Assembly (NCBI GenBank): GCA_027923505.1
Contig: BROI01000001.1
Location: forward strand, 1,922,001-1,986,000
Source of the DNA: Mayamaea pseudoterrestris
Lineage: Eukaryota
Direction of reading: 5' to 3'
Length of the DNA stretch: 64,000 nucleotides
Numbering within the stretch: position 1 is the first letter of the stretch; every line of letters begins with the position of its first letter. The translations under genes were made by a program, and so were the position numbers. The notes under the pieces are model-generated. The model searched no databases and had not been told where the DNA came from. It saw nothing but the letters and a program-made list of their open reading frames with translations. Positions 13,623-51,723 of the stretch are shown piece after piece.

Positions 13623-13998
13623 GGTGAGAGCAATTTCTTTCCTCGTATAAACGAATGATTGTTGTAAATTTACACTCGTCAAAGCAATGAGGGAGAGGTC
13701 GGGAGGAGAATTGTTTGTGTGTGTGCGATTGTCGATGGTGGCAACAAGCGTGCCACAAGGGCGGTCGATGGAAGCGTTTCTCACGGTTACTTATGCACAC
13801 AATGACGTGTCGTCGAGGGTCACCAGCGAATGACGATTGTTCGACTGTCTGTTGACGGTTATGATTTGTTATGCCTTTTGCTTATTTAAGATAAACGAGC
13901 ACGTCAACACATGCAAATTGCGTAAGGGCTATTGTAAACGTGGACGCCATGACGGGCATGCGTTCCTACTCACTTACATCCTGAAAACGAACAATCAT

Positions 13999-14224
13999 TG
14001 AAGTACCTATCGTAGGATGATATGTAAATGGAAATTATGATGGTATTTTAAAAGACTGCAATTGAAGATTGCCTCCATGGCGAGCCATCGCTTTAAAAGA
14101 GCGAGGATCGCAGATGTCGCAACAGGATCGCCCATCTTCGCTAATACCCGACGGGCGTGTCCGTTGACTGTCCGGCTCGCCGTTGAGGACGGGCCGGTGC
14201 ATGTGAATCGTGTCAGATAGCACA
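13999..14224 (-). repeat. Gypsy 3' LTR (left copy), 226 bp
   Basis: Matches 17735-17960 by eye; TG...CA ends. Confidence 0.95.
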
Positions 14225-14370
14225 CTCTCCCACACTAAGAGCGACCATGAGGGTAGCTGGGGTAAAATGTCTTCCTTCTTGTTTGTAAAGTGGCAGCGGC
14301 CTTCCTGTCGCACAGGGTGCCGTAATTTAGCTCGATCTTGGTAGATTGAAGCAAGGGAGCTGCGCAAACC

Positions 14371-17300
14371 TTAGACGTCTTGCCGGTACGGCTTGATACG
14401 CCGAATATTAACTCGGTCAGTCACCATAGGCGAGAGGCGAATGGTAACCGTTCCATTAACGTGGACTTGTTCAATTGAATAAGGACCGATCCATCGTTCT
14501 TCGAGCTTGTTAGGGTCGTATACCTTTTTGAGGATCTGCTCGTCAACTTTAAAGTCATGAGTCAGTCTCGAACGATTCGCTTGGAGCAAACGTTCATTGA
14601 CAATCGCTTCTCGTTTAACAGAGATAGCTAGAATGTCGGCAACAAGCGGTATATCCAGAAACATGTCGCGTTGAAAGACGACGGCGCCGGGAGAAAGGTT
14701 ATCAAGAGCTCCACTTGATACAACTCGTGTTGCATGCATTGCTGTCGCGAGGCATTGATCGATTATATCGTCAGCTTCCATCAAATCCTCGGGCGGATGA
14801 GCGTGTACAAGTGTACGAAGCACGTTGCCAATAACGAGGTGACAGCGCTCGCAAATGCTGTTAGCAGTGGGCGTCTTGGCCGAAGCGGCATGCCATTCAA
14901 TCCCATTGTGTTCAAGGATGGTTCCAAATGCTCCTTTAAACTCACTGCCTTGGTCGGCAACGAGTCGCATTGGTCGAGGATAGCGAGAGAGCCAGTTGTC
15001 TTCAAAGAGACGGCCGATATGATACGCCGACTTGTCCTGATAGCGAACAATTTCGACAAGGTTAGTAACTGGGTCAATCATCGTTAACGCTCTGAAATAA
15101 CAGTCAATGCCGTTCACTGATACTTTCCATGGGCCGATGAGGTCAACGTGGACTTCATACCAAGGAGCGACGCGTACGTCTCTCGCTGGCAGCTCTCCAT
15201 ATTGGCGACTGCCTCCTTTGTTGCGTTGGCAAGTATCGCAGGCACCAACAAGATGCTCGACGCGCTGCTTGAGCTTAGGATGGTAAAAGTGCTGTTTGAT
15301 GCTCGTTGTGAGGCGAGTCATTCCAGCGTGGGCCATTGAAAGGTGGTACCAAAGAATCAAGCGATCGAGGATCGCACTGGGGATGCAGATTCGCCAGCGT
15401 TCGTCTGCTTGGAATACAACAATCTGAACGTCTCCAAGTTGTTTGTATTGTATGGTTGTCGCGTCTTGGTTTTGGACTGCGGCCATTAGCGTTGCATCTT
15501 CTTGTTGATACTCGGCAATGGTTGAATACGACAGGGGATATCGCCCTTGTTCGTCGAACTCCGGATGGAGGAGCAGGCACTCTGCAAGCTCTGGTTCGTC
15601 CCGTAGGAGACAGTAACCTTCATTAGCAATTGATAGCTCTTCAATTTGCCTTTCCCCATGGTCGTTTGTTGTTGATTCAATTGAATGTGCAAGAACGCCG
15701 CCATCGTGATGGCCATCGTTGACACCGTGTAAGTTGTCATCGTGATGGGTATGTCGCATGGGCACTGCAGCCTTTTGCGCTTCCGTTTGTCGGGCATCCT
15801 GTTGTTGCTTTAAAACATCAACAGGGCTCTCCCCCACTAGAGAGGTTTCCCTTGCCGTTGGAACCCTTGAAAGAGCATCTGCGACAGTATTAAGCTCCCC
15901 TTTGAGATAAAGGAACTCGGGACCGAATTCCTCCAAGTACAGACGCCATCGAAGGACGCGCTGCGTTTGAAAGGCGGTCAACTCGTGGGTGAGATTTTTA
16001 TGGTCCGTATGGATCTGCAAACGCGCTCCAAGCAGCATCGAACGAAACGTTTTGAGCGTTTCAACAATACTTAGCAATTCCTTCTCAATGGTGGTGTAAT
16101 TGACTTGGGCGCTGTTGAGTTTGCGCGAAAAGTAAGCGACCGGAATGCCGTCTTGAAGAATGACGGCCCCAAGTTGGTAATCCGAGGCATCCGTTTTAAT
16201 AACAAATGGCTTGTTGTGATCAGGGTAACGAAGAAGAACATCGCTTGCTGCAACCGCTTTCATTTCTTCGAACGCCTTTTGTTGAGGCGCGCCCCATTGA
16301 AAGGTCTTTTTGCCAACGAGATTCGTCAAAGGAGCAAGCATGTGCGACCGTCGCGACAAGACCAAGGAATGAGCGCAACTGTTTAATGTTGGTAGGAGGC
16401 TTCATATCCACAATTGCTTGGACCTTTTTGGGCCAGGGTTTGAGTCCTGTCGGCGTGAGCCAGTACCCAAGCCAGTCAGTCTCCTTGACGCCCCATTCGC
16501 ACTTGCTTGGATTGATTGTAAAGCCGCTATCCTCAAGTCGCTTTAAAACAGACTCCAATAGCTTTAAATGCTCTTGCCAAGTGTCGCTAAAGCAACCGAC
16601 GTCATCAAGGTACTTTTCAACGTCGCGCAATCCTTGTAAAACCTTCTCCATCACCTCTTGAGCAATATCGGGGGCTTGATTGACGCCCATTGGCAAACGC
16701 AAGTATCGAAACAAACCGAATGGCGTTGCAATTGTACAGAGCTCGCTGCTTTCCTTGTCCAACTGGAAGGTATAATACTGCATTGAAATATCAAGCTTTG
16801 TGAAGAACTTGTACCCGCTGCGCCTCGCCAGTAGCTCATGGATACGCGGCATCGGGAACGTGCGCCTTTTAATCACTTTATTCAACGCCCGAAAGTCAGA
16901 AACAAAGCGTACAGTCTTGTCCTTCTTTGGTATAATAAAGGTGGGCGCCGCCCATTCGCTGCGGCCGCAAGGCTCAAGTACACCGAGTTCGACGAGTCGA
17001 TCAAGCTCTTCCTTGAAGGTTTGCTCATGCACTCGAGGCACTGGATAATGTCTTTTATGGACTGGTTTAGCTTGTGGATCAATGTCAATGTGGACTAGCT
17101 TGTGTGGGTATTTGCCAAGCTTGCCTGAAAAGAGAGCGGGAAAGCGTCGTAAGAGACGTTTTAAATCGGTACGTTGCTCCTCATTTAAATGAGTTGATTG
17201 ATCGGCAACCTCATCTGTTGACACTTTGTTATACTTAGCTGATAAAATCTCCTCGCTTGTATGCAGGTCTGGTTCAGTATCAGAGAAAAGAACAAACCGC

Positions 17301-17734
17301 TCAATCAAAGAGTCTCTGATTTGCTTTGGCCGATTGCTCAAATCCTCCATCGTTACCATTGGAGTCGATTGATTACCCCAATTGATTTGCTTGTCTCCAA
17401 AGTCAATGGTCAATCCGAGCGCCGTTAAGACGTCTCGCCCCAGCAGCATGTCGTATCTGATATCCTGTTGGAAGACTCGCACGGGGAAGTTGCCGATCCT
17501 TTTTGAAGTGCTAAACTCGGGAAGGAACGACTCGGCAAAATCAATCTTGGTAGAGCTTTCCAGTTTGCCAACTGCAGTCTGTGATATTAAACGTGGTGCT
17601 TTGCACTGAGGCAATCCATGTGCCGCTCTTTGGCTAATCCAACTCGTCGAGGCTCCTGAATCGCAAAGGGCGGTAAGCGTGCGTTTACAGCGACTGCCAT
17701 TAGCTTTACCAACGACAATAAGTACAACAGGAAT
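14371..17734 (-). pseudogene. Duplicated Gypsy pol (PR, RT, RNase H, IN), 5'-truncated and frameshifted
   Basis: Copy of 18107-21470 with one visible SNP (16330 vs 20066); same frameshift after RSFLGLV. Confidence 0.9.
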
Positions 17735-17960
17735 TGAAGTACCTATCGTAGGATGATATGTAAATGGAAATTATGATGGTATTTTAAAAGACTGCAATTG
17801 AAGATTGCCTCCATGGCGAGCCATCGCTTTAAAAGAGCGAGGATCGCAGATGTCGCAACAGGATCGCCCATCTTCGCTAATACCCGACGGGCGTGTCCGT
17901 TGACTGTCCGGCTCGCCGTTGAGGACGGGCCGGTGCATGTGAATCGTGTCAGATAGCACA
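17735..17960 (-). repeat. Gypsy 3' LTR (middle copy), 226 bp
   Basis: Exactly 3736 bp from the left LTR; same sequence. Confidence 0.95.
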
Positions 17961-18106
17961 CTCTCCCACACTAAGAGCGACCATGAGGGTAGCTGGGGTA
18001 AAATGTCTTCCTTCTTGTTTGTAAAGTGGCAGCGGCCTTCCTGTCGCACAGGGTGCCGTAATTTAGCTCGATCTTGGTAGATTGAAGCAAGGGAGCTGCG
18101 CAAACC

Positions 18107-21100
18107 TTAGACGTCTTGCCGGTACGGCTTGATACGCCGAATATTAACTCGGTCAGTCACCATAGGCGAGAGGCGAATGGTAACCGTTCCATTAACGTGG
18201 ACTTGTTCAATTGAATAAGGACCGATCCATCGTTCTTCGAGCTTGTTAGGGTCGTATACCTTTTTGAGGATCTGCTCGTCAACTTTAAAGTCATGAGTCA
18301 GTCTCGAACGATTCGCTTGGAGCAAACGTTCATTGACAATCGCTTCTCGTTTAACAGAGATAGCTAGAATGTCGGCAACAAGCGGTATATCCAGAAACAT
18401 GTCGCGTTGAAAGACGACGGCGCCGGGAGAAAGGTTATCAAGAGCTCCACTTGATACAACTCGTGTTGCATGCATTGCTGTCGCGAGGCATTGATCGATT
18501 ATATCGTCAGCTTCCATCAAATCCTCGGGCGGATGAGCGTGTACAAGTGTACGAAGCACGTTGCCAATAACGAGGTGACAGCGCTCGCAAATGCTGTTAG
18601 CAGTGGGCGTCTTGGCCGAAGCGGCATGCCATTCAATCCCATTGTGTTCAAGGATGGTTCCAAATGCTCCTTTAAACTCACTGCCTTGGTCGGCAACGAG
18701 TCGCATTGGTCGAGGATAGCGAGAGAGCCAGTTGTCTTCAAAGAGACGGCCGATATGATACGCCGACTTGTCCTGATAGCGAACAATTTCGACAAGGTTA
18801 GTAACTGGGTCAATCATCGTTAACGCTCTGAAATAACAGTCAATGCCGTTCACTGATACTTTCCATGGGCCGATGAGGTCAACGTGGACTTCATACCAAG
18901 GAGCGACGCGTACGTCTCTCGCTGGCAGCTCTCCATATTGGCGACTGCCTCCTTTGTTGCGTTGGCAAGTATCGCAGGCACCAACAAGATGCTCGACGCG
19001 CTGCTTGAGCTTAGGATGGTAAAAGTGCTGTTTGATGCTCGTTGTGAGGCGAGTCATTCCAGCGTGGGCCATTGAAAGGTGGTACCAAAGAATCAAGCGA
19101 TCGAGGATCGCACTGGGGATGCAGATTCGCCAGCGTTCGTCTGCTTGGAATACAACAATCTGAACGTCTCCAAGTTGTTTGTATTGTATGGTTGTCGCGT
19201 CTTGGTTTTGGACTGCGGCCATTAGCGTTGCATCTTCTTGTTGATACTCGGCAATGGTTGAATACGACAGGGGATATCGCCCTTGTTCGTCGAACTCCGG
19301 ATGGAGGAGCAGGCACTCTGCAAGCTCTGGTTCGTCCCGTAGGAGACAGTAACCTTCATTAGCAATTGATAGCTCTTCAATTTGCCTTTCCCCATGGTCG
19401 TTTGTTGTTGATTCAATTGAATGTGCAAGAACGCCGCCATCGTGATGGCCATCGTTGACACCGTGTAAGTTGTCATCGTGATGGGTATGTCGCATGGGCA
19501 CTGCAGCCTTTTGCGCTTCCGTTTGTCGGGCATCCTGTTGTTGCTTTAAAACATCAACAGGGCTCTCCCCCACTAGAGAGGTTTCCCTTGCCGTTGGAAC
19601 CCTTGAAAGAGCATCTGCGACAGTATTAAGCTCCCCTTTGAGATAAAGGAACTCGGGACCGAATTCCTCCAAGTACAGACGCCATCGAAGGACGCGCTGC
19701 GTTTGAAAGGCGGTCAACTCGTGGGTGAGATTTTTATGGTCCGTATGGATCTGCAAACGCGCTCCAAGCAGCATCGAACGAAACGTTTTGAGCGTTTCAA
19801 CAATACTTAGCAATTCCTTCTCAATGGTGGTGTAATTGACTTGGGCGCTGTTGAGTTTGCGCGAAAAGTAAGCGACCGGAATGCCGTCTTGAAGAATGAC
19901 GGCCCCAAGTTGGTAATCCGAGGCATCCGTTTTAATAACAAATGGCTTGTTGTGATCAGGGTAACGAAGAAGAACATCGCTTGCTGCAACCGCTTTCATT
20001 TCTTCGAACGCCTTTTGTTGAGGCGCGCCCCATTGAAAGGTCTTTTTGCCAACGAGATTCGTCAACGGAGCAAGCATGTGCGACCGTCGCGACAAGACCA
20101 AGGAATGAGCGCAACTGTTTAATGTTGGTAGGAGGCTTCATATCCACAATTGCTTGGACCTTTTTGGGCCAGGGTTTGAGTCCTGTCGGCGTGAGCCAGT
20201 ACCCAAGCCAGTCAGTCTCCTTGACGCCCCATTCGCACTTGCTTGGATTGATTGTAAAGCCGCTATCCTCAAGTCGCTTTAAAACAGACTCCAATAGCTT
20301 TAAATGCTCTTGCCAAGTGTCGCTAAAGCAACCGACGTCATCAAGGTACTTTTCAACGTCGCGCAATCCTTGTAAAACCTTCTCCATCACCTCTTGAGCA
20401 ATATCGGGGGCTTGATTGACGCCCATTGGCAAACGCAAGTATCGAAACAAACCGAATGGCGTTGCAATTGTACAGAGCTCGCTGCTTTCCTTGTCCAACT
20501 GGAAGGTATAATACTGCATTGAAATATCAAGCTTTGTGAAGAACTTGTACCCGCTGCGCCTCGCCAGTAGCTCATGGATACGCGGCATCGGGAACGTGCG
20601 CCTTTTAATCACTTTATTCAACGCCCGAAAGTCAGAAACAAAGCGTACAGTCTTGTCCTTCTTTGGTATAATAAAGGTGGGCGCCGCCCATTCGCTGCGG
20701 CCGCAAGGCTCAAGTACACCGAGTTCGACGAGTCGATCAAGCTCTTCCTTGAAGGTTTGCTCATGCACTCGAGGCACTGGATAATGTCTTTTATGGACTG
20801 GTTTAGCTTGTGGATCAATGTCAATGTGGACTAGCTTGTGTGGGTATTTGCCAAGCTTGCCTGAAAAGAGAGCGGGAAAGCGTCGTAAGAGACGTTTTAA
20901 ATCGGTACGTTGCTCCTCATTTAAATGAGTTGATTGATCGGCAACCTCATCTGTTGACACTTTGTTATACTTAGCTGATAAAATCTCCTCGCTTGTATGC
21001 AGGTCTGGTTCAGTATCAGAGAAAAGAACAAACCGCTCAATCAAAGAGTCTCTGATTTGCTTTGGCCGATTGCTCAAATCCTCCATCGTTACCATTGGAG

Positions 21101-21569
21101 TCGATTGATTACCCCAATTGATTTGCTTGTCTCCAAAGTCAATGGTCAATCCGAGCGCCGTTAAGACGTCTCGCCCCAGCAGCATGTCGTATCTGATATC
21201 CTGTTGGAAGACTCGCACGGGGAAGTTGCCGATCCTTTTTGAAGTGCTAAACTCGGGAAGGAACGACTCGGCAAAATCAATCTTGGTAGAGCTTTCCAGT
21301 TTGCCAACTGCAGTCTGTGATATTAAACGTGGTGCTTTGCACTGAGGCAATCCATGTGCCGCTCTTTGGCTAATCCAACTCGTCGAGGCTCCTGAATCGC
21401 AAAGGGCGGTAAGCGTGCGTTTACAGCGACTGCCATTAGCTTTACCAACGACAATAAGTACAACAGGAATGTAATCCGTAACTTTGTCGCTAGTAGCTTG
21501 TTGATTAACTTCATCCGCTACAAGAGCGTCTTCAGTCGCACTGGCTGCCGCTGAGACCGCCGCCGTATC
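18107..21569 (-). pseudogene. Gypsy pol polyprotein with a frameshift between RT and RNase H
   Basis: PR LCDSGAS; RT YLDD; RNase H TDAS/EKELL/TDH; IN HxxxxH...CDTC, DLIGP, DQGSEF, CER, GPY; frame change near 20090. Confidence 0.9.
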
Positions 21570-22608
21570 TCATTCTTCAAAGACCGCTCCAATTGCTTGA
21601 TCCCAATCAACCTCCGACTTGCTCTCTTGCTCTGGCGCTGGTTCCTCTGTTGTAACATCCACTATCATGTGCTGGTCTTCATCAGCTTCTTGAGCAGCTC
21701 CGCCTCCATTGTTGCCGCCTCCATTGTTTTTCTTTTTCAATTTCGACTTGTCGAGTTTGAAACCCGGCTTGTAGCGCGGGCCCTTGGGGTTGCCGAAACA
21801 CTGCTCCCAAGTGTGGCCGTCGTGGTATTTGCACACGTTGGCATCGTTGTTTGCTTTATGCTTCTTTCTCGATCCATTCCCATGGTCGTTGTTGTTTTGG
21901 CCACCGCCGTTGCCACCGTTGCGACGCGAGCGTTTGCCGCTCCGACGGCTGCCGCCATTGTCGTTCGAGTCGACTGGAGTCCTGTTGCTTGCCTTTAAGT
22001 TGATCATATTATCCAACCATCTTGCAAACTGAATCAAAGAGAGGTCAGCCAAACGACTCGTTAAAGATTGTTCCTCGAACTTGCTTTGCAGCCAAGTAGG
22101 GACCATCGCGAGCAGGAGATTCGCGACGCTACCGCTGATCGGGCCCGCAGGGTAAACCGCCTCGCCTACGGATGACATAAGCCTCAACTGAACGCGATCA
22201 ATTGATTGGCGCAATGAGCCGTGCCGGACATCTCTTTTGTCGCAACTGACCACCGAAAGCTGGCGACGACAGCCGAGCGAAGGAGTCCAGCGCGATTGCG
22301 ATTCGTGTGGGCAGAACTGATTGATCCCAAGTATCACGAGGCGCTCCAAGGAGACAAAGGCGAAAGGATTCCTTGTGGACCCTCATGCGATGGGCTGCCT
22401 GTCCATCAAAGGCGAGCTGCTCCATTGCACCAATCACCTCCCCGATGACACGAAGGACTGTCACGACGTCTTCATCACTAGCAATCTGTATCTTGCGCTT
22501 GTGCTTGGATCCATCTTGCTTGGTGAACGTGAGATCTTGTTTCGGTAGCGACTCAAACTTGACGCGAGGCACCAAAGGGATCTTGACGTCGACTCCTCTA
22601 ATCAACAT
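21570..22608 (-). pseudogene. Gypsy gag, frameshifted around 22200-22350
   Basis: ATG 50 nt after the 5' LTR; C-terminal CKYHDGHTWEQC zinc-knuckle-like motif and basic/Gly-rich region; split over two ORFs. Confidence 0.8.
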
Positions 22609-22658
22609 GTTGTTTCGTTTCCGTTTTCGATAGACAGTTGTCTATTTTGAATTCAAAG

Positions 22659-22883
22659 TGAAGTACCTATCGTAGGATGATATGTAAATGGAAATTATGA
22701 TGGTATTTTAAAGACTGCAATTGAAGATTGCCTCCATGGCGAGCCATCGCTTTAAAAGAGCGAGGATCGCAGATGTCGCAACAGGATCGCCCATCTTCGC
22801 TAATACCCGACGGGCGTGTCCGTTGACTGTCCGGCTCGCCGTTGAGGCTGGGCCGGTGCATGTGAATCGTGTCAGATAGCACA
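22659..22883 (-). repeat. Gypsy 5' LTR, 225 bp
   Basis: Matches the other two LTRs apart from a 1-nt indel and a 2-nt substitution. Confidence 0.95.
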
Positions 22884-42675: not shown

Positions 42676-44099
42676 TCAACTTGAATCAGGCTTCGACATA
42701 TCCGCTTGCATGCCGCCGCTCGTCTTCTTCTCTTCAACCTCAGTATCCGCCTGACCGAGCATTTTAAAAAGCGAGGCTTGGATGACGCGTTGCCGTTCAG
42801 CAGTCATGCCCATTTCTTCGTGGTCATAGCCCATGGCACCGCTGCCATTGCCACTTCTGGGAGCCTCCTTTGGTCGTCGCTGACGTTGTGCTTGCTGCCG
42901 CTTTGCGTACATTTCAAAGTACCATGGCGGAAACATGAGATTCATTGAAGCTGGTACTGGGAGTGCCCAAGTGTCTGGAATTTGCAGGCAAGTCTGCAGA
43001 AAAATGCTGGCCGAATCAAATAGGAACTTGGGGCGTGGCGAATTGTGATCGCCTTCGACAATTATAATGTTCTTGTCGCCCGCATATTTGTAGTGCAGTT
43101 GCTCCGAATGATGCTTCTTGATAAAATCATCATGCTCCCCAGCGACAAAGAGTGCAGGAATAAAGCACTTGTCAGCATGTGAAATGGGCGAAATAGCCTT
43201 GATGTTGAACCCGCCTTGCTTCTTGACCGATCCCTTCAGAAAGTTAATGGCCACCGACACGACAAAGCCAGGAACGACAATACCTTGCTCCCTGCCTTTC
43301 TCGACCATCTCTTCGCAAAGCTGCGTCAAGTCGGCAAAGGGACTGTCCAAAATCATGCAGGCAATACTCGGATCCCGAGAACCAAACATCAATGCGGTAG
43401 CCGCGCCCATACTCCGACCCCACAAGGCAATCGTACTGACAACATTCGTTGCTCGCAAATGAGCAACAATGCAGCTCAAATCTTCTCTTTCATAATAACC
43501 AAGACTCACGTACTCGCCATCACTCTTGCCCGAACCAGCAAAGTCAAAGGCAAACACGGCAACCCCCAGTCCCAAAAGGTAACTCAATTGCGGAATCACC
43601 TCCACTCGCGCACTGCTATTACCATGCATGTAGATTACCACTGGAATTCGGTCAGCTTCACGCTCTACAGGCTCCCAATGTGAGCATTCCAAGCTAAAGC
43701 CCCGTTTCGTGCGCAACGTAAAGTCTGTCCGTGTGAATCTCTTGCCACAAAAAGTAAAGGCTGGTGGTCCCAAGGCTTCCATCTGCAGATTAAAGATCAG
43801 ATATTATAAAATGAGATCCATTCTACTAAATAGACTCTAACGCAATATAGAACGCAATTCGCTGGCAAACCGTATGCGATGGAGCACATAATAGTGGTCA
43901 TCGCAAAAACATTCGAACTCAGAATCATCAGCTTCCGTGCAGTTGCAGCGAGTATCAAATTGACAGATGCACTGCATATTTAATTCATACCTTATAATCA
44001 GCTCTTGGAGGTCGAATAATTGCATTCACAAGCTCCTGGTATCCCATCTTTGCCATTTGAACGTAGGACAATTTCTTGTTGCCATTGGCAGCTGCAGCC
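42676..44099 (-). CDS. Alpha/beta hydrolase (YqkD/ABHD-like); first exon abuts the Copia LTR
   Basis: IIRPPRADYK|MEALGP across intron 43783-43990; HGNSS, DFAGSGKSDG, GRSMG, GDHNS; frame open up to the LTR, in-frame ATG at 44056. Confidence 0.88.
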
Positions 44100-44310
44100 T
44101 GTTGAGCATGGATGAGAACCCAAACCGAAGCGGCAGCGGTGACGTCACGAAGACGGTCACATTTAAGTAAGCGCGGTAAGCGGCAACCGAAGGAGTGGAT
44201 CGAGGACGATCACTTCTTGGAGAAAATAAGTAAAGTGGTTTTATTGACTCTGTTCTGCTTAATCATTAGTGTCGCTTCAAGGGCGCGCAAGATATATTCT
44301 AGATCCAACA
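44100..44310 (+). repeat. Copia LTR 1, 211 bp
   Basis: Same sequence as 44356-44566 and 50543-50753. Confidence 0.95.
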
Positions 44311-44355
44311 TTTTCTCCAAGAAGCGAGTGAAAAGACATGTCTTCGACGAGCAAC

Positions 44356-44566
44356 TGTTGAGCATGGATGAGAACCCAAACCGAAGCGGCAGCGGTGACG
44401 TCACGAAGACGGTCACATTTAAGTAAGCGCGGTAAGCGGCAACCGAAGGAGTGGATCGAGGACGATCACTTCTTGGAGAAAATAAGTAAAGTGGTTTTAT
44501 TGACTCTGTTCTGCTTAATCATTAGTGTCGCTTCAAGGGCGCGCAAGATATATTCTAGATCCAACA
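44356..44566 (+). repeat. Copia LTR 2 (5' LTR of the full internal region), 211 bp
   Basis: 256-bp tandem repeat of LTR plus leader. Confidence 0.95.
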
Positions 44567-44580
44567 TTTTCTCCAAGAAG
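44566..44580 (+). promoter_or_regulatory. Non-tRNA primer-binding site complementary to the element's own LTR (44469-44483)
   Basis: ATTTTCTCCAAGAAG is the exact reverse complement of CTTCTTGGAGAAAAT. Confidence 0.75.
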
Positions 44581-44593
44581 CGAGTGAAAAGAC

Positions 44594-47500
44594 ATGTCTT
44601 CGACGAGCAATACTCCGACGACAGGAGCGGCGTCGAGCGGTGGAGGTGCACCTCCCGCTCCGCCAGCAAGCGAAGGAAACCGACGCAACCGTCATTATCG
44701 TCGTGGGAATCGTGCTGGGAATCGTTCCGGGAATCAAGGCAATGGTAACAGACTCAACGGACCGAGTCGTGCGCCGAGTGGAAATTTCCAAGGAAGCGAG
44801 CCGACGCTCGCTGGATTCATCTACGACTATAACGGTTCGCGCGATCCCGATGGATTCATCCGTACGACGAACGAGATCATCACTTTCGTCGGGCGCTCCT
44901 ACAAGAAATATACCAAGGAGCTGCTCAAGGGCATGCGCAACGTGGAACTGGAGATTCCTGACGAGCCTGCACGTCCAACGAAGGATGCCGACACGACGGA
45001 CTCGGACTGGTCCATAATGCTCGAGGAATACAAGGCCGACAAGAAAGAGCATGTCGAGCGCGTGCGTGTATACTCCGACTTCCTCGCTGGTCTCTACGCC
45101 GTGTTGCATGGACAATGCACGGAGCGTATGAAGGATCGTGTCAAGTCGCACGCCAAGTTCCGAGACGCCGAGGAGGACACGGACGGAATTAAGTTGCTGG
45201 CGATTATCAAGGAGATCTCGCATACGTACGAAGGGCGCTGCAAACTTGTGGATCAAGTCGTGGACATTCAAGCTGAGTTGTTCGGACGTACTCAAGGGAG
45301 CGCGCGAAAGCCTGCAGAAATATTACGAAAGCATGGTCACGCTGGCAGACGTGGCGAAGGCGGTTGGCGTCACGATGCACAACGAGATTGTGGCGTTGAA
45401 CATTGCCAAGGATGACAATCGTAACAAGGCGAACAAGGAGGATATCAAGGCCGCCGAAGAGCTCGAGCTTGCGATGCTTTTCGTGCGTGGCGCAACGGGC
45501 GAATACGCTGGGTATTGCAAGCACTTGCGCAACTGCTACCTCGACGGGCACGACAACTTCCCGTTGACGATCCACGATGCATACAACATCATGCAGCGTC
45601 GTGAGCATGCGGATGGAGAAGCCACGTTGCCAACGAACGAGGGCGTGGCGTTTCACACGACTGGTACAGCGCGTGACCCTCCCAGATGCTGGACCTGTCA
45701 ACAGGTTGGTCATGTGCAGCGAGACTGTCCTACGAGAACGGAGTCTACGGAGAGTGCGCCGGCTGCAGAGGCTAGTGGGGCGCAGCACTTCACGCTGGGT
45801 AGCGAGGAAGAAAGCGATGACGACGATGAGGTCGGATACATGTTCGCGCAGCCGCCGAAGGTGAACATCTCGAAGAAGGCTGTGCTCTGGACAATCAGTC
45901 GACAGTGGATCTGTTCTGCAACGCCAAGATGCTGACGAACATTCGCCCGGTGCCAACGTGGATGGTGATCATGGCCAACGCTGGTACAGTAAGGACGAAC
46001 ATGATGGGCGACCTGGAGGGCTATGGTCCGGTGTGGTGGTATCCGCAGGGACTGGCGAACATTTTGAGTTTGGCGCAAGTCCGCAAGAAGTTTACCGTGG
46101 AGTATCTCATGCACGGCGTGGATCGTCCAATGTTCGTTGTGGAGAAGCCGGATGGTAAGCAGCGAGAGTTTGTCGAGACTGACTCTGGGCTGTATGTTTG
46201 CGAGAGCTTTTCGAAGGGCAAGCGCAGCGATGTCAAGGATGGAGTGGCGATGTTGACTACGGTAGACGATAACCGTACTAACTACACCAATGATGACTAT
46301 TTACGCGCTGTTAGAGCTAGGGAACTGCAAATCAAAATTGGACGGCCAAGCCTCAAGGATTACCTGCGCATCGTTACTAGCAATCAGTTGCCGAACTGTC
46401 CTGTGACGAAGGCCGACATCCTGGCTGCTGAGCACATCTTTGGACCAGATGTTGGCTCGTTAAAAGGAAAGACGACGCGTCGCGCGTCGCATCTGGTGAA
46501 GCCTGCGATTGTTGAGACGCTTCCACCGGCTATCATGAGTCGCTATCGAGACGTTACTCTTTGTGCTGACATCATGTATATCAACAAAGTCCCTATGTTG
46601 GTGACGTTCTCCCGCAGCATTCGTTTTGCTACGGTTGAGGTGATTCAAAACCGTACGCTTCCGGTTATGTTGAAGGCAATCGAGTCTGTGTTGAAGATTT
46701 ACGCACGCGGTGGGTTCCGTGTCGTCGCGGCTCTGATGGATGGGGAGTTCGCTCCAATGCTTGGCGCGTTGGCTGATCTCGGAGTGGCGCTCAATGCGAC
46801 ATCTGAGGATGAACACGTTGGCGAAATTGAACGTTTTATCCGTGTCGTGAAAGAACGGGTGCGCGCGACATACAACACGTTGCCATTTAAGCACGTGCCG
46901 GCACGCTTGGTTATCGAAATGACGAAGTCTGCCGTGTTTTGGTTGAATGCGTTTCCGAACGAGCGTGGCATTTCGAAGGATCTCAGTCCACGCACTATTG
47001 TGACTGGTCAGACAGTTGACTTTAATCGGCATTGCAAGTATGAATTTGGTCAGTATGTGCAAACGCATGAGTCGCACAGCAATGACATGCAGGCGCGCAC
47101 GATCGGTGCGCTGGCTCTGCGCCCGACTGGTAATGTGCAGGGTGGGTTTTATTTCCTCAGTTTGTCTTCGGGCAAAGTTCTGAATCGTGGGCACGCTACG
47201 CCTTTGCCCATGCCTGATGATGTCATTGAGCGCGTGCATCGTCTCGCTCGTCAACAGAAGGCCAATCCGGGCATCGTGTTCATGGACCGCCACCGTGTTG
47301 CGGAGGCTGCTGAGCCAGTCAGTGGCACGAAGATGACGCCGAGGATGATGATGACTCTGATTATGATGACGACGCTTCTCGCGGTGACGACGACTCTGCC
47401 GGCGGAAGCGAAGGAGTGAATGCGACCGATGACGACGACGACGACGACGATGGTGCTGACGGCGCAATCGAAGGAGTGCCGAACGACGAGGATGGTGAGG

Positions 47501-50500
47501 CCATTGACGGCGAACTTGACGACGCGCCAGCCGTGGATGATGGCGAAATTGAAGGAGTGCCCGATGAAGGCGAAATTGAAGGAGTGCCAGCTGCCGCAGA
47601 CGAAGAGGATTTCGATGCGCGCTATGGCCCACGCACTGGTCGGTATGGCCTGCGTGCGCGCAAACCTCGCTCGTTCGCTCATTTGTTCACGCTCGACGCT
47701 GCAGAGGAAGTGTCGGAGCCACTCGTCACGGCACAGATGAATATGCGACAAGGTTTAAAGGCTTTTGGCGATGCTGGAGTGGAGGCAGTGCGCAAGGAAA
47801 TGCAGCAGCTACACGACAGGCACGTCATGAAGGCAGTCCCCCAATGCCTTCTGACTCCGCAGCAGCGCAAGGACGCTCTGGCGTATTTGATGTTTCTCAA
47901 GCGCAAGAGATGCGGGACTGTGAAGGGACGCGGATGCGCGGATGGACGCAAGCAACGAGCATACACTGCAAAGGAAGACGCAGCATCTCCAACGATAGCG
48001 ACAGAGGCCATCTTTCTGACAGCTATCATTGACGCTATGGAAGGGCGCGAGGTTGCTGTGGTTGATGTACCGGGTGCTTTCATGCAAGCGGAAATGGATG
48101 AGTTGGTGCACGTTCGTTTCACTGGGAAGATGGTGGAGCTACTGTTGGAAATTGATCGCGAGATGTACGAGCCTTGCGTCACAATGGAGAATGGCGAGAA
48201 AGTCATGTATGTTGAATTACTCATGGCGCTTTATGGTACGCTTCGAGCAGCGCGACTATTCTGGGAGAAGTTGTCCGCAAAATTGCTTGAGTGGGGCTTC
48301 GAGAAGAACCCGTACGATCCGTGTGTGTGCAACAAGATTGTCAATGGGAAGCAAATCACCGTGGGATGGCACGTGGACGATTTGAAGATTTCGCACGTCG
48401 ACGTGAGCGTAGTGGATGAGTTCATCGCGCAGATGGATGAGGAGTTTGGCAAGGAGACTCCAATGAATAAGTCACGCGGAAAAGTGCACGACTACCTCGG
48501 CATGGTATTGACTATACTAAGCCTGGAGAAGTAGCAATCAACATGGTTGACTATGTGAAGAACATCCTGCATCATGCGCCAGACGACATGGATGGAACGG
48601 CAGCTACTCCGGCAGCCAGTCACTTGTTTCAGATATCGGAAAATCCTGTCATGTTGAGCGAAGCGAAGAAGCAGATTTTTGTGACGATTGTGATGCAGTG
48701 TCTGTATCTGAGTCAGCGAGCGCGACCGGATATTCGCACAGCGATTTCTTTTCTTGAGCACGAGGCCGCAGCAGCCTGACGAAGACGACTATAAGAAGGC
48801 TGCAAGAGTGATTAAATATTTACGCGGAAGGTGGACATAGTGTTGACGCTGAAGGCGGACCAGTCCGGGATAGTCCAGTGGTGGGTGGATGCGTCGTGCG
48901 CGGTGCACCCAGACATGAAGGGTCACACTGGTGGAACAATGACACTGGCCAAGGATCAGTGTACAGTACGTCGGCTAAACAGAAAGTTGGTAACAAGAAG
49001 CTCGACGGAGAGCGAAGTTGTGGAGTTCATGATGTGCTACCGCAGTTGCTGTGGACAGGATATTTTCTGAAGGCGCAAGGTTTCGGGGTCAAAGACACGA
49101 AATTGTATCAAGACAATATGAGTTCAATGCTGTTGGAAAAAGAATGGCAGGACGCAAGCAACGAGCATACACACTGCAAAAGGAAACGCAGCATCACGAT
49201 ACACAGGTCATCTTTCTGACAGCTATCATTGACGCTTGGAAGCCGTTGCTGTGGTTGATGTACGTGCTTTCATGCAAGCGGAAATGGATGATTGGTGCAC
49301 GTTCGTTTCACTGGGAAGATGGTGGAACTACTGTTGGGAAATTGATCGCGAGATGTACAGGCCTTGTCTATGGAGAATGGCGAGAAATATTTGTTGAATT
49401 ACTCATGGCGCTTTGTGGTGCGCTTCGAGCAGCGCGACTATTCTGGGGAAGTTGTCCGCAAAATTCGTATGGGGCTTCGAGAAGAACCCGTACGATCTTG
49501 TGTCAACAAGATTGTCAATGGGACAAATCACCGTGGGATGGCACGTGGACGATTTGAAGATTTCTGCACGTCGACGTGAGCGTAGTGGATGAGTTCATCG
49601 CGCAGATGGATGAGGAGTTTGGCAAGGAGACTCCAATGAATAAGTCACGCGGAAAAGTGCACGACTACCTCGGCATGGTATTGGACTATACTAAGCCTGG
49701 AGAAGTAGCAATCAACATGGTTGACTATGTGAAGAACATCACCATCATGCGCCAGACGACATGGATGGAACGGCAGCTACTCCGGCAGCCAGTCACTTGT
49801 TTCAGATATCGGAAAATCCTGTCATGTTGAGCGAAGCGAAGAAGCCAGATTTTTGTGACGATTGTGATGCAGTGTCTGTATCTGAGTCAGCGAGCGCGAC
49901 CGGATATTCGCACAGCGATTTCTTTCTTGAGCACGAGGCTGCAGCAGCCTGACGAAGACGACTATAAGAAGGCTGCAAGAGTGATTAAATATTTACGCGG
50001 AAGCGTGTATATGGTGTTGACGCTGAAGGCGGACCAGTCCGGGATAGTCCAGTGGTGGGTGGATGCGTCGTACGCGGTGCACCCAGACATGAAGGGTCAC
50101 ACTGGTGGAACAATGACACTTGGCCAAGGATCAGTGTACAGTACGTCGGCTAAACAGAAGTTGGTAACAAGAAGCTCGACGGAGCGAAGTTGTGGGAGTT
50201 CATGATGTGCTCACCGCAGTTGCTGTGGACAGGATATTTTCTGAAGGCGCAAGGTTTCGGGGTCAAAGACACGAAATTGTATCAAAGACAATATGAGTTC
50301 AATGCTGTTGGAAAAGAATGGCAGAAGCTCAAGTACAAAGCGCACGCGACACATGAATGTTCGGTACTTCTTTGTGAAAGATCGCGTGGCAGCTGGTGAA
50401 GTCAACATTGAGCATTGTCCGACCGGAGACATGGTCGCGGATTTCTTCACGAAACCATTGCAGGGAGCCCAGTTTGGCAAGCTCCGCAACCTGGTTATGA

Positions 50501-50613
50501 ATCTGGCCTCGAGCAGTAAGTACTACTCGGCCCAAAGGAGTGTGTTGAGCATGGATGAGAACCCAAACCGAAGCGGCAGCGGTGACGTCACGAAGACGGT
50601 CACATTTAAGTAA
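44594..50613 (+). pseudogene. Copia gag-pol polyprotein, split by 1-nt indels and an internal duplication in this sequence
   Basis: CWTCQQVGHVQRDC knuckle; protease (L)DNQSTVDLF; IN CADIMY/MDGEF/EIER; RT DVPGAF, ALYG, WHVDD; RNase H WVDAS, QDN, ADFFTKPL. Confidence 0.9.
47945..50323 (+). repeat. About 1.2-kb tandem duplication of RT-RNase H with an error-rich junction
   Basis: GGACGCAAGCAACGAGC at about 47944 recurs at about 49150; second copy is full of small deletions over its first ~430 bp. Confidence 0.85.
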
Positions 50614-50753
50614 GCGCGGTAAGCGGCAACCGAAGGAGTGGATCGAGGACGATCACTTCTTGGAGAAAATAAGTAAAGTGGTTTTATTGACTCTGTTCTG
50701 CTTAATCATTAGTGTCGCTTCAAGGGCGCGCAAGATATATTCTAGATCCAACA
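50543..50753 (+). repeat. Copia 3' LTR, 211 bp
   Basis: Same sequence as the 5' LTRs; preceded by the polypurine tract. Confidence 0.95.
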
Positions 50754-50769
50754 CCCATGACATTGTCAC

Positions 50770-51723
50770 ATGCCCCGCCCTATTCAAAACATCATGGTAC
50801 CTCCAGCAGTACCTCCAGCTGCCGCCGCTCGCAGTCACCATGCAGCAGCAGGCTCTAGTTTCAAAATGTTTGACGGCGCGCCAGTGACAAAACTGCTCCT
50901 CGCCCAAGTCTTGCTGCTGTACCTGATGCGAAACGTTTGGCATTTACTTGAATATTACGAAAACAACGAACCAACGGCGAGCATAGTTGCCATAATATTT
51001 CGCCTGATGGTTTGTAAATTAACCTTTTCAGCGCCGGGTCCTCTCATACTTGGAGGTATACTGCTGGGGACGTTTGGGCGAAGATATGAGCGTGAGCTTG
51101 GAAGCTTGCGGTTCATATGGCTATGTCTCTTTTGCAATGCTCTCGTGATACTGTTGGAGCTACTGACGGTCAATGTCATGCCAGGCAAGCGTTACGACGG
51201 ACCGTATCCGCTGCTGGGAGCTTGCCTGTGGCTCTACTACTGCTACGCGCCGCGACTATATCCAAGCTTCTTCTCCATTCTTGGTTTGGAAGCATCGGAA
51301 AAGTCAATCTTTTACTCTCTCTTTGGCCTAGTATTGTTCCGTGAGGGACTGCAACCCGCTATATTGGGAATGATGGCTTGCTGCTTGTTTTGCAGGCTGC
51401 AACTGCAGTTTCCAAACGTCATGGGGCTTGCCAGCCACGCGACGCTGCTGCTGCAAAAGGTGCAAGCGCCACCGCGCGTCTTGATTTCCACAGCAGCCAA
51501 TGGAGTAAACGTCTTGAATCATCATGCTGCGGCTGCTAATGCTCGTCCAATGGTTCGCCCAGTAGTAGCTCCGCCACGACCAGTTGTCGTGGAAGCAGAC
51601 CCAGCCGCCATTGAGCAGCTCGTCATGATGGGCTTTGACCAAGATCAAGTAGTTCGCACGCTGCAGGCGACAAACAACAACGTGGAGCGAGCTGCGGATC
51701 AACTACTTTCGCAATTGTCATAG
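50770..51723 (+). CDS. UBAC2-like rhomboid pseudoprotease with C-terminal UBA domain
   Basis: APVTK, RRYERELGSLRF, GPY, SEKS, then UBA LVMMGF...NNNVERAADQLL. Confidence 0.85.
   Translation: MPRPIQNIMVPPAVPPAAAARSHHAAAGSSFKMFDGAPVTKLLLAQVLLLYLMRNVWHLLEYYENNEPTASIVAIIFRLMVCKLTFSAPGPLILGGILLGTFGRRYERELGSLRFIWLCLFCNALVILLELLTVNVMPGKRYDGPYPLLGACLWLYYCYAPRLYPSFFSILGLEASEKSIFYSLFGLVLFREGLQPAILGMMACCLFCRLQLQFPNVMGLASHATLLLQKVQAPPRVLISTAANGVNVLNHHAAAANARPMVRPVVAPPRPVVVEADPAAIEQLVMMGFDQDQVVRTLQATNNNVERAADQLLSQLS

Follow-up and report, generated by a model that had tools for sequence, protein, structure and literature searches.

Tf1, for which self-priming is proven, and Tj1, for which it is deduced, are retrotransposons whose PBS can base-pair with the 5′-terminal part of their own mRNA, from which a cut releases the primer (PMC4600332). 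Among Ty1/Copia elements, self-priming has been predicted from sequence for the plant TAR lineage (Houba, Osr-1), and the same source puts the predicted share among plant elements at 12% (PMC6317226). In diatoms the main transposons are Copia elements, which are activated by stress, and the CoDi elements are abundant both in diatoms and in marine samples (PMC2806351). The main text of that paper contains the word 'tRNA' 0 times and 'PBS' only as the name of a buffer, and holds nothing on priming. In the main texts of the freely accessible full-text literature, we found no description of self-priming in diatom Copia elements.

Here we analyze a Ty1/Copia retrotransposon in a 64,000-nt stretch of DNA, the whole of which we call the window. 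The original prediction for this locus held that the element reverse-transcribes without a tRNA, by pairing the 5′ end of its transcript with its own PBS, and suggested an independent origin of this mode of priming.

A Ty1/Copia element with an LTR complement at the PBS position

The element was recognized by a zinc knuckle and a Copia-type RT (Pfam RVT_2, E = 8.3e-16, in 47416–48534), with the zinc knuckle upstream, RVT_2 in the 3′ half, and a 529-aa ORF between them. The genes around it are eukaryotic (CLASP, HSF, kinase, TPR, and ankyrin); a search with the HSF gene gave no hits beyond itself and one metagenome protein. Three LTRs of 211 nt (TGTTGAG...CCAACA) are 100% identical to one another, and the parts of the element are arranged as follows.

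44100–44310, plus strand: extra upstream LTR copy, 211 nt, within a 256-nt tandem duplication and 100% identical to the other two LTRs
44311–44355, plus strand: duplicated 45-nt leader piece between the two upstream LTRs, holding a PBS copy (44310–44324) and the first gag bases
44356–44566, plus strand: 5′ LTR of the full element, TGTTGAG...CCAACA
44466–44468, plus strand: initiator-like TCA directly 5′ of the arm, with A44468 as the inferred +1
44469–44483, plus strand: 5′ arm, putative self-primer and start of R, with a primer of 14 nt (44469–44482) or 15 nt
44484–44494, plus strand: putative remainder of a short R, containing TGGTTT, which is related to the YTRGTTT of relatives
44566–44580, plus strand: 3′ arm, putative PBS, beginning at the last LTR base, with the invariably paired part at 44567–44580
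44594–50540, plus strand: gag-pol coding region with zinc knuckle and RVT_2, in several frames in this copy
47944–50324, plus strand: internal tandem duplication of ~1.17 kb in the RT/RNase H region, whose two units are 94% alike
50534–50542, plus strand: polypurine tract AAAGGAGTG, directly before the 3′ LTR
50543–50753, plus strand: 3′ LTR, with the third arm copy at 50656–50670

The 5′ arm CTTCTTGGAGAAAAT, which lies within the LTR, is the exact reverse complement of the 3′ arm ATTTTCTCCAAGAAG, and the perfect 15-nt match claimed by the original prediction is thus present, with 15 of 15 core positions paired. A repeat search reports the same pair as 18 nt at 94% complementarity (44466–44483 with 44566–44583), the arms being 82 nt apart. 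Since the 5′ LTR spans 44356–44566, A44566 is its final base and the 3′ arm starts where a PBS belongs, which had also been claimed. The reported absence of a TGG-type (tRNA-type) PBS directly after the 5′ LTR is borne out by the window sequence.

The 15-mer occurs five times in the window (plus strand at 44213, 44469, and 50656; minus strand at 44310 and 44566), compared with 0.02 matches expected by chance, and none of 100 shuffles reached five matches. The second arm pair (44213–44227 with 44310–44324), which the prediction had listed correctly, exists because the 256-nt unit of LTR and leader is tandemly duplicated, and the remaining copy of the LTR arm is the one in the 3′ LTR. Predicted folds of 44468–44600, MFE as well as centroid, contain the LTR-PBS stem. 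This 133-nt leader has a fold z-score of only −1.64, and 8 of 200 shuffles fold equally well.

Peculiarities of the window copy

Positions 44099–44354 and 44355–44610 agree at 100%, forming a 256-nt unit of the LTR and 45 nt of leader and producing the order LTR-PBS-LTR-PBS. A target-site duplication (TSD) is absent from the element, which has CAGCC upstream and CCCAT downstream. An LTR-PBS duplication without a TSD is reminiscent of Tf1 insertion guided by the PBS and independent of integrase, which gives tandem products lacking a TSD (PMC11042837); alternatively, the 256-nt unit may simply have been duplicated, or the assembly may be in error here.

We compared the window copy with contigs from four public runs, which represent two coded organisms and two studies and have no library type on record. 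Differences of 1 nt at 45296, 45887, and 47321 join the reading frames in these contigs, and the window copy differs from them by 1–2-nt indels at its frame breaks, including further ones at 48509 and 50181–50284. A contig from run X1 joins 48671 to 49846 and is therefore without the ~1.17-kb duplication. Because run contigs join the frames and omit the duplication, intact versions of the element exist elsewhere. This suggests that the frame breaks are private to this decayed copy, whose LTRs are nevertheless still identical, or are (long-read) assembly errors.

The summed word depth over the element (43900–51000, runs X2–X4) exceeds that of the 3′ flank by a factor of 100 to more than 1000 and varies strongly from place to place; many copies, extrachromosomal DNA, or RNA-derived libraries could account for this. 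No integrase was recognized by Pfam or PDB sequence search in the window element or in the full-length relative P0003. Inspected by eye, the protease-integrase region (45830–47416, and its counterpart in P0003) shows a D..D-35-E-like spacing.

Covariation of the arms in related elements

An exhaustive search with the RT returned 12,306 relatives at E <= 1e-3, and no relatives were found in viral contigs. For comparison we used 79 of the 408 loci on metagenome contigs that encode relatives (RT 39–68% identical to that of the window). A position-blind scan of all 356,098 nt of these 79 loci for stems (at least 13 bp, at most one G:U, loop of 30–300 nt) yielded 40 distinct stems. Twenty-nine share one syntax, with CA directly before the first arm and CAAC(A) adjoining the second, and the other 11 are unrelated stems with neither feature. 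In two block-shuffled controls we obtained 10 and 2 stems, and the syntax was absent from all of them.

The signature is carried by 30 of the 79 loci (RT 39–63% identical), making 31 carriers with the window, which together hold 29 distinct arm pairs. In these elements, the partner of the PBS site lies ~50–150 nt upstream of it, within the LTR. The complete relative L035 has the same layout in a different sequence, and each of the differences preserves pairing.

That the match in the window arose by chance or as an assembly artefact merits practically no credence. The locus does have assembly-like oddities, namely two tandem duplications and frame breaks absent from other runs, but the low chance expectation given above, the presence of the LTR and leader in contigs of independent runs as well, and the recurrence of the same architecture in 30 independent loci led us to reject such an origin.

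We numbered the pairs of the 29 arm pairs from the LTR-final A. At pairs 2–15, all 406 cells are paired (403 Watson-Crick and 3 G:U), with two to five pair types at each position; of the three G:U pairs, L035, an old copy with LTRs that are 93% alike, has two and L023 has one. Pair 1 is T:A in 22 arm pairs, and in the other 7 of the 29 elements the base opposite the LTR-final A is unpaired, so the exact end of the primer is ambiguous (14 or 15 nt). Pair 16 is paired in only 5 of 29, being A:C or A:A in the other 24, and pairing further out stays at similar chance-like levels. Conservation of the complementarity in relatives, a check proposed with the original prediction, was thus observed, as 14 positions are 100% paired across the 29 distinct arm pairs with heavy covariation.

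Covariation was counted on a MAFFT alignment of the 29 rows, five of which are misregistered at the 5′ arm and were kept in, making the paired-cell count conservative. In this alignment 91.8% of cells are paired, compared with 57.1 ± 1.8% after shuffling; the covariation score is 0.811 (shuffled, 0.191), and 138 cells are changed on both sides (shuffled, 37.5). For each of the three measures, 0 of 500 shuffles reached the observed value. As a further control, sliding the partner by 1–3 columns left 40–55% of cells paired. The arms also differ among close relatives: one tight RT clade (branch lengths ~0.1) contains at least three different arm pairs (L008, L013, and L009), each perfectly matched.

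The 29 PBS sequences each match their own LTR and do not match one another, and these differences between elements exclude one shared cellular tRNA or tRNA half as the primer. It is very improbable that the site serves as an ordinary PBS to which a host tRNA, a tRNA half, or some different cellular RNA anneals, with the LTR match being secondary. PBSs that lack TGG and pair with half-tRNAs are known in the Copia lineages Osser, Bryco, and Bianca (PMC6317226), but a primer of cellular origin is hard to reconcile with 29 different sites that each follow their own LTR, and we found no tRNA gene in the window and no Rfam match in 43900–44800.

Conserved syntax around the arms

The dinucleotide CA directly precedes the 5′ arm in all 29 stems with LTR-end context, and the 3′ arm abuts the LTR end ...CAAC(A) in 29 of 29 pairs. 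From the CA to the end of the arm there are 15 nt in 25 elements; the remaining 4 have 16 nt. Of the 24 distinct 5′ arms, 20 are preceded by T at −3 and 16 by C at −4, giving (G)CTCA. The initiator-like TCA pointed out before the LTR arm, part of GATCA in the window, is therefore a feature kept directly 5′ of the arm in relatives. By analogy, the (C)TCA resembles the initiator of oomycetes, a stramenopile group, which is TCATTCC with the A as +1 (PMC4368664). The original prediction also placed an ATTTAAG ~50 nt upstream of the arm; this word is indeed present at 44417–44423, 46–52 nt upstream, but as a promoter-like feature it is not conserved, with a TATA-like word within 80 nt upstream in only 3 of the 29 elements.

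A conserved YTRGTTT directly follows the 5′ arm in 24 relatives and is found in the window at 44484–44500, after an extra AAGTAAAG. It may be a cut site, a poly(A) region, or homology for strand transfer. At the other end of the element, the junction of polypurine tract (PPT) and LTR, GGAGTG/TGTTG, also recurs in relatives.

Loci without the signature

On a quick RT tree, loci with the signature occur on both halves and are not clustered (18 label changes, compared with a shuffled mean of 18.7), and presence therefore mostly reflects whether a contig holds the LTR-leader junction. In 18 of the 30 carrier loci this junction lies downstream of the RT, with the contig running from the 3′ LTR into PBS and gag in a circularly permuted or tandem arrangement, which is probably an assembly effect of a repeated element.

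Among the other 49 loci, 23 are too short on both sides. We looked for a 3′ LTR in 23 loci that extend 1,900 nt or more past the RT, and 21 have a PPT/LTR start; no PBS complement was found in the sequence past the 3′ LTR of the screened loci, so the signature test is not applicable to them. The contigs of L036 and L027 are cut inside the LTR. The stem is absent despite room for the junction in L032, L033, L064, and the 5′ side of L047.

At L010:3895–3920, a 3′ LTR is followed by the first 7–8 nt of the element's own PBS and then by unrelated sequence, and a loose contig end at window position 44574 in runs X3 and X4 likewise consists of the LTR and the start of its own PBS. Ends of the L010 type could derive from PBS-microhomology insertion, as in Tf1 lacking integrase. 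A partial PBS after a 3′ LTR was found only in L010 (7 nt), which is not significant against a null of 0.6 per replicate.

The window also contains a Ty3/Gypsy element (13997–22883, minus strand) with RVT_1, RT_RNaseH, and Integrase_H2C2. It carries a 3,737-nt tandem duplication at 99.97% identity (13997–17734 and 17733–21470) that includes an LTR, and a further LTR copy lies at 22656–22883. No complement longer than 9 bp was found between its LTR and post-LTR sequence, and the post-LTR sequence CTTTGAATTCAAAATAG is also not a TGG-type PBS.

Probable self-priming and competing explanations

We estimate a probability of roughly 70% that the element primes minus-strand DNA synthesis with the 5′ end of its own transcript, in the manner of Tf1, and not with a tRNA. 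The central claim of the original prediction gains support from the covariation over 29 arm pairs whose sequences differ between elements. What defines Tf1-type self-priming is a PBS that matches its own element and can take any sequence provided that both sides match (PMC4600332).

From the observed complementarity, its position, conservation, and covariation, and the surrounding syntax, we infer the start site, cut, priming, and PBS rewriting of the following scheme. Transcription would start at the conserved initiator-like TCA in the LTR (A44468 or C44469). The first 14–15 nt of the RNA (44469–44483) would fold back over ~82 nt, made up of the remaining R and U5, and pair with 44566/7–44580. 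A cut past the paired stretch, made in Tf1 by the element's RNase H, would free a 3′-OH, which RT would extend through U5 and the short remaining R. Plus-strand strong-stop synthesis would then copy the primer into DNA, and the PBS would thereby be rewritten from the primer in each cycle, a step that we derive from the general plus-strand strong-stop scheme. Such rewriting would explain the perfect complementarity, the sharp ends, and the fast joint change of the arms.

Several observations run counter to the self-priming reading, among them the modest fold z-score, the unpaired base opposite the LTR-final A in 7 elements, and the four loci with room for the junction but no stem. If the A of TCA is +1, the first RNA base falls outside the pairing (pair 16), and R would be so short that ~11 nt or slightly more remain for the first strand transfer after the primer is cut. 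On the supporting side, contigs of run X1, whose type is not on record, have dead ends at 44479 and at 3′-LTR base 50681 (equivalent to 44494); the two contigs concerned overlap by 16 nt, and other neighboring X1 contigs overlap by 30 nt. This pattern is as would come from a transcript with a short R, a weak hint given that contig ends are unreliable.

Covariation proves pairing, not priming, and the arms could instead be conserved as a long-range stem in the RNA that serves, for example, in packaging, dimerisation, cyclisation, or the regulation of gag translation, in an element that uses another primer. Fungal GalEa Copia elements, which have no tRNA PBS, have a conserved but unexplained hairpin site in the corresponding position (PMC5445492), and the gag ATG is close by, 14 nt past the stem in the window and 16–73 nt past the start of the 3′ arm in most relatives examined. 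We nonetheless consider a purely structural stem unlikely, as no alternative PBS is visible beside the LTR and priming accounts better for three features. The 3′ arm lies against the LTR exactly where a primer would anneal, adjoining the LTR-final A in 29 of 29; the pairing has its 5′ limit at (G)CTCA; and G:U pairs, which a structural stem would tolerate along with ragged ends, account for only 3 of 406 cells, with both ends sharp and with a joint turnover of the arms within one RT clade that is very fast and fits copying better than slow compensation.

It is quite unlikely that the primer derives from the element by a route other than the 5′ fold-back, either as the arm copy in the 3′ R (in cis or on a co-packaged RNA) or as a small LTR RNA. 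The arm is also present in the 3′ LTR, and the motif after the arm and the X1 contig end 11 nt past it are compatible with RNA 3′ ends nearby. However, a poly(A) tail would leave no paired 3′-OH unless a further cut were made, a primer from the 5′ end predicts that pairing stops sharply at the initiator-like TCA, as it does, and the only proven precedent, Tf1, uses the 5′ end (PMC4600332).

Implications of the proposed self-priming in diatom-type Copia elements

Self-priming in diatom-type Copia elements would be a further instance of a known mechanism, one for which we found no earlier description in the literature searched and which is well supported by covariation. If true, these elements would form a third, phylogenetically distant self-priming group beside the Tf1/sushi Gypsy elements and plant TAR Copia. 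With 29 covarying families, the comparative signal is unusually clean.

For annotation, tools that seek a tRNA PBS would score such elements as lacking a PBS, and the syntax of TCA plus 15 nt followed by CAAC(A) plus the complement offers a diagnostic. In diatoms, where nitrate limitation activates Copia elements, work with marked elements or on mobilisation has to preserve the match between the two arms. That each cycle rewrites the PBS from the primer is a concretely testable idea.

A broader proposal, which we regard as speculative and unlikely as a whole, is that a widespread diatom-type (stramenopile) clade of Copia gave up tRNA priming, with the cap-proximal 14–15 nt of a very short R as primer, with the PBS rewritten each cycle so that the turnover of primer and PBS far outpaces that of the RT, and possibly as the ancestral mode. 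Pseudoviridae have been proposed as the oldest group of LTR retrotransposons, and a hairpin-primed ancestor has been proposed as well (PMC3601003); on these proposals, self-priming could be a surviving ancestral mode and not a derived one.

Comparison with known systems

Self-priming has been proven for Tf1 and is deduced for Tj1 and the Tf1/sushi group. Tf1 is a Gypsy chromovirus with a primer of 11 nt and a mechanism established by experiment, whereas the window element belongs to Copia (RVT_2), would use a primer of 14–16 nt, and has a mechanism deduced from comparison. The likeness to Tf1 and Tf2 of S. pombe and Tj1 of S. japonicus is that the PBS directly past the 5′ LTR pairs with a site in the LTR and that no tRNA primer is used (PMC4600332). 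By way of its PBS, Tf1 can also insert in tandem and without a TSD (PMC11042837), and the window copy likewise has no TSD and an extra LTR-PBS unit.

The plant TAR elements belong to the same superfamily, Ty1/Copia, and are likewise predicted to self-prime (PMC6317226); they differ in that they belong to land plants and branch within a set of Copia lineages primed by tRNA-Met. The fungal GalEa elements resemble the window element as Copia elements without a tRNA PBS whose 'Conserved Hairpin Site' starts at the final A of the 5′ LTR. That site is a local 9-bp palindrome for which the authors found no LTR complement, whereas the site described here is non-palindromic and has a partner in the LTR (PMC5445492).

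The nearest Atlas clusters to the gag N-terminus are from Bacillariophyta, which serves as a lead only, and published P. tricornutum element primers had no match in the window. The element probably has its home among the CoDi lineages of diatom Copia (Maumus et al., 2009), with which it would share the Copia gene order and in which young, TSD-less recombinant copies have also been reported (PMC2806351).
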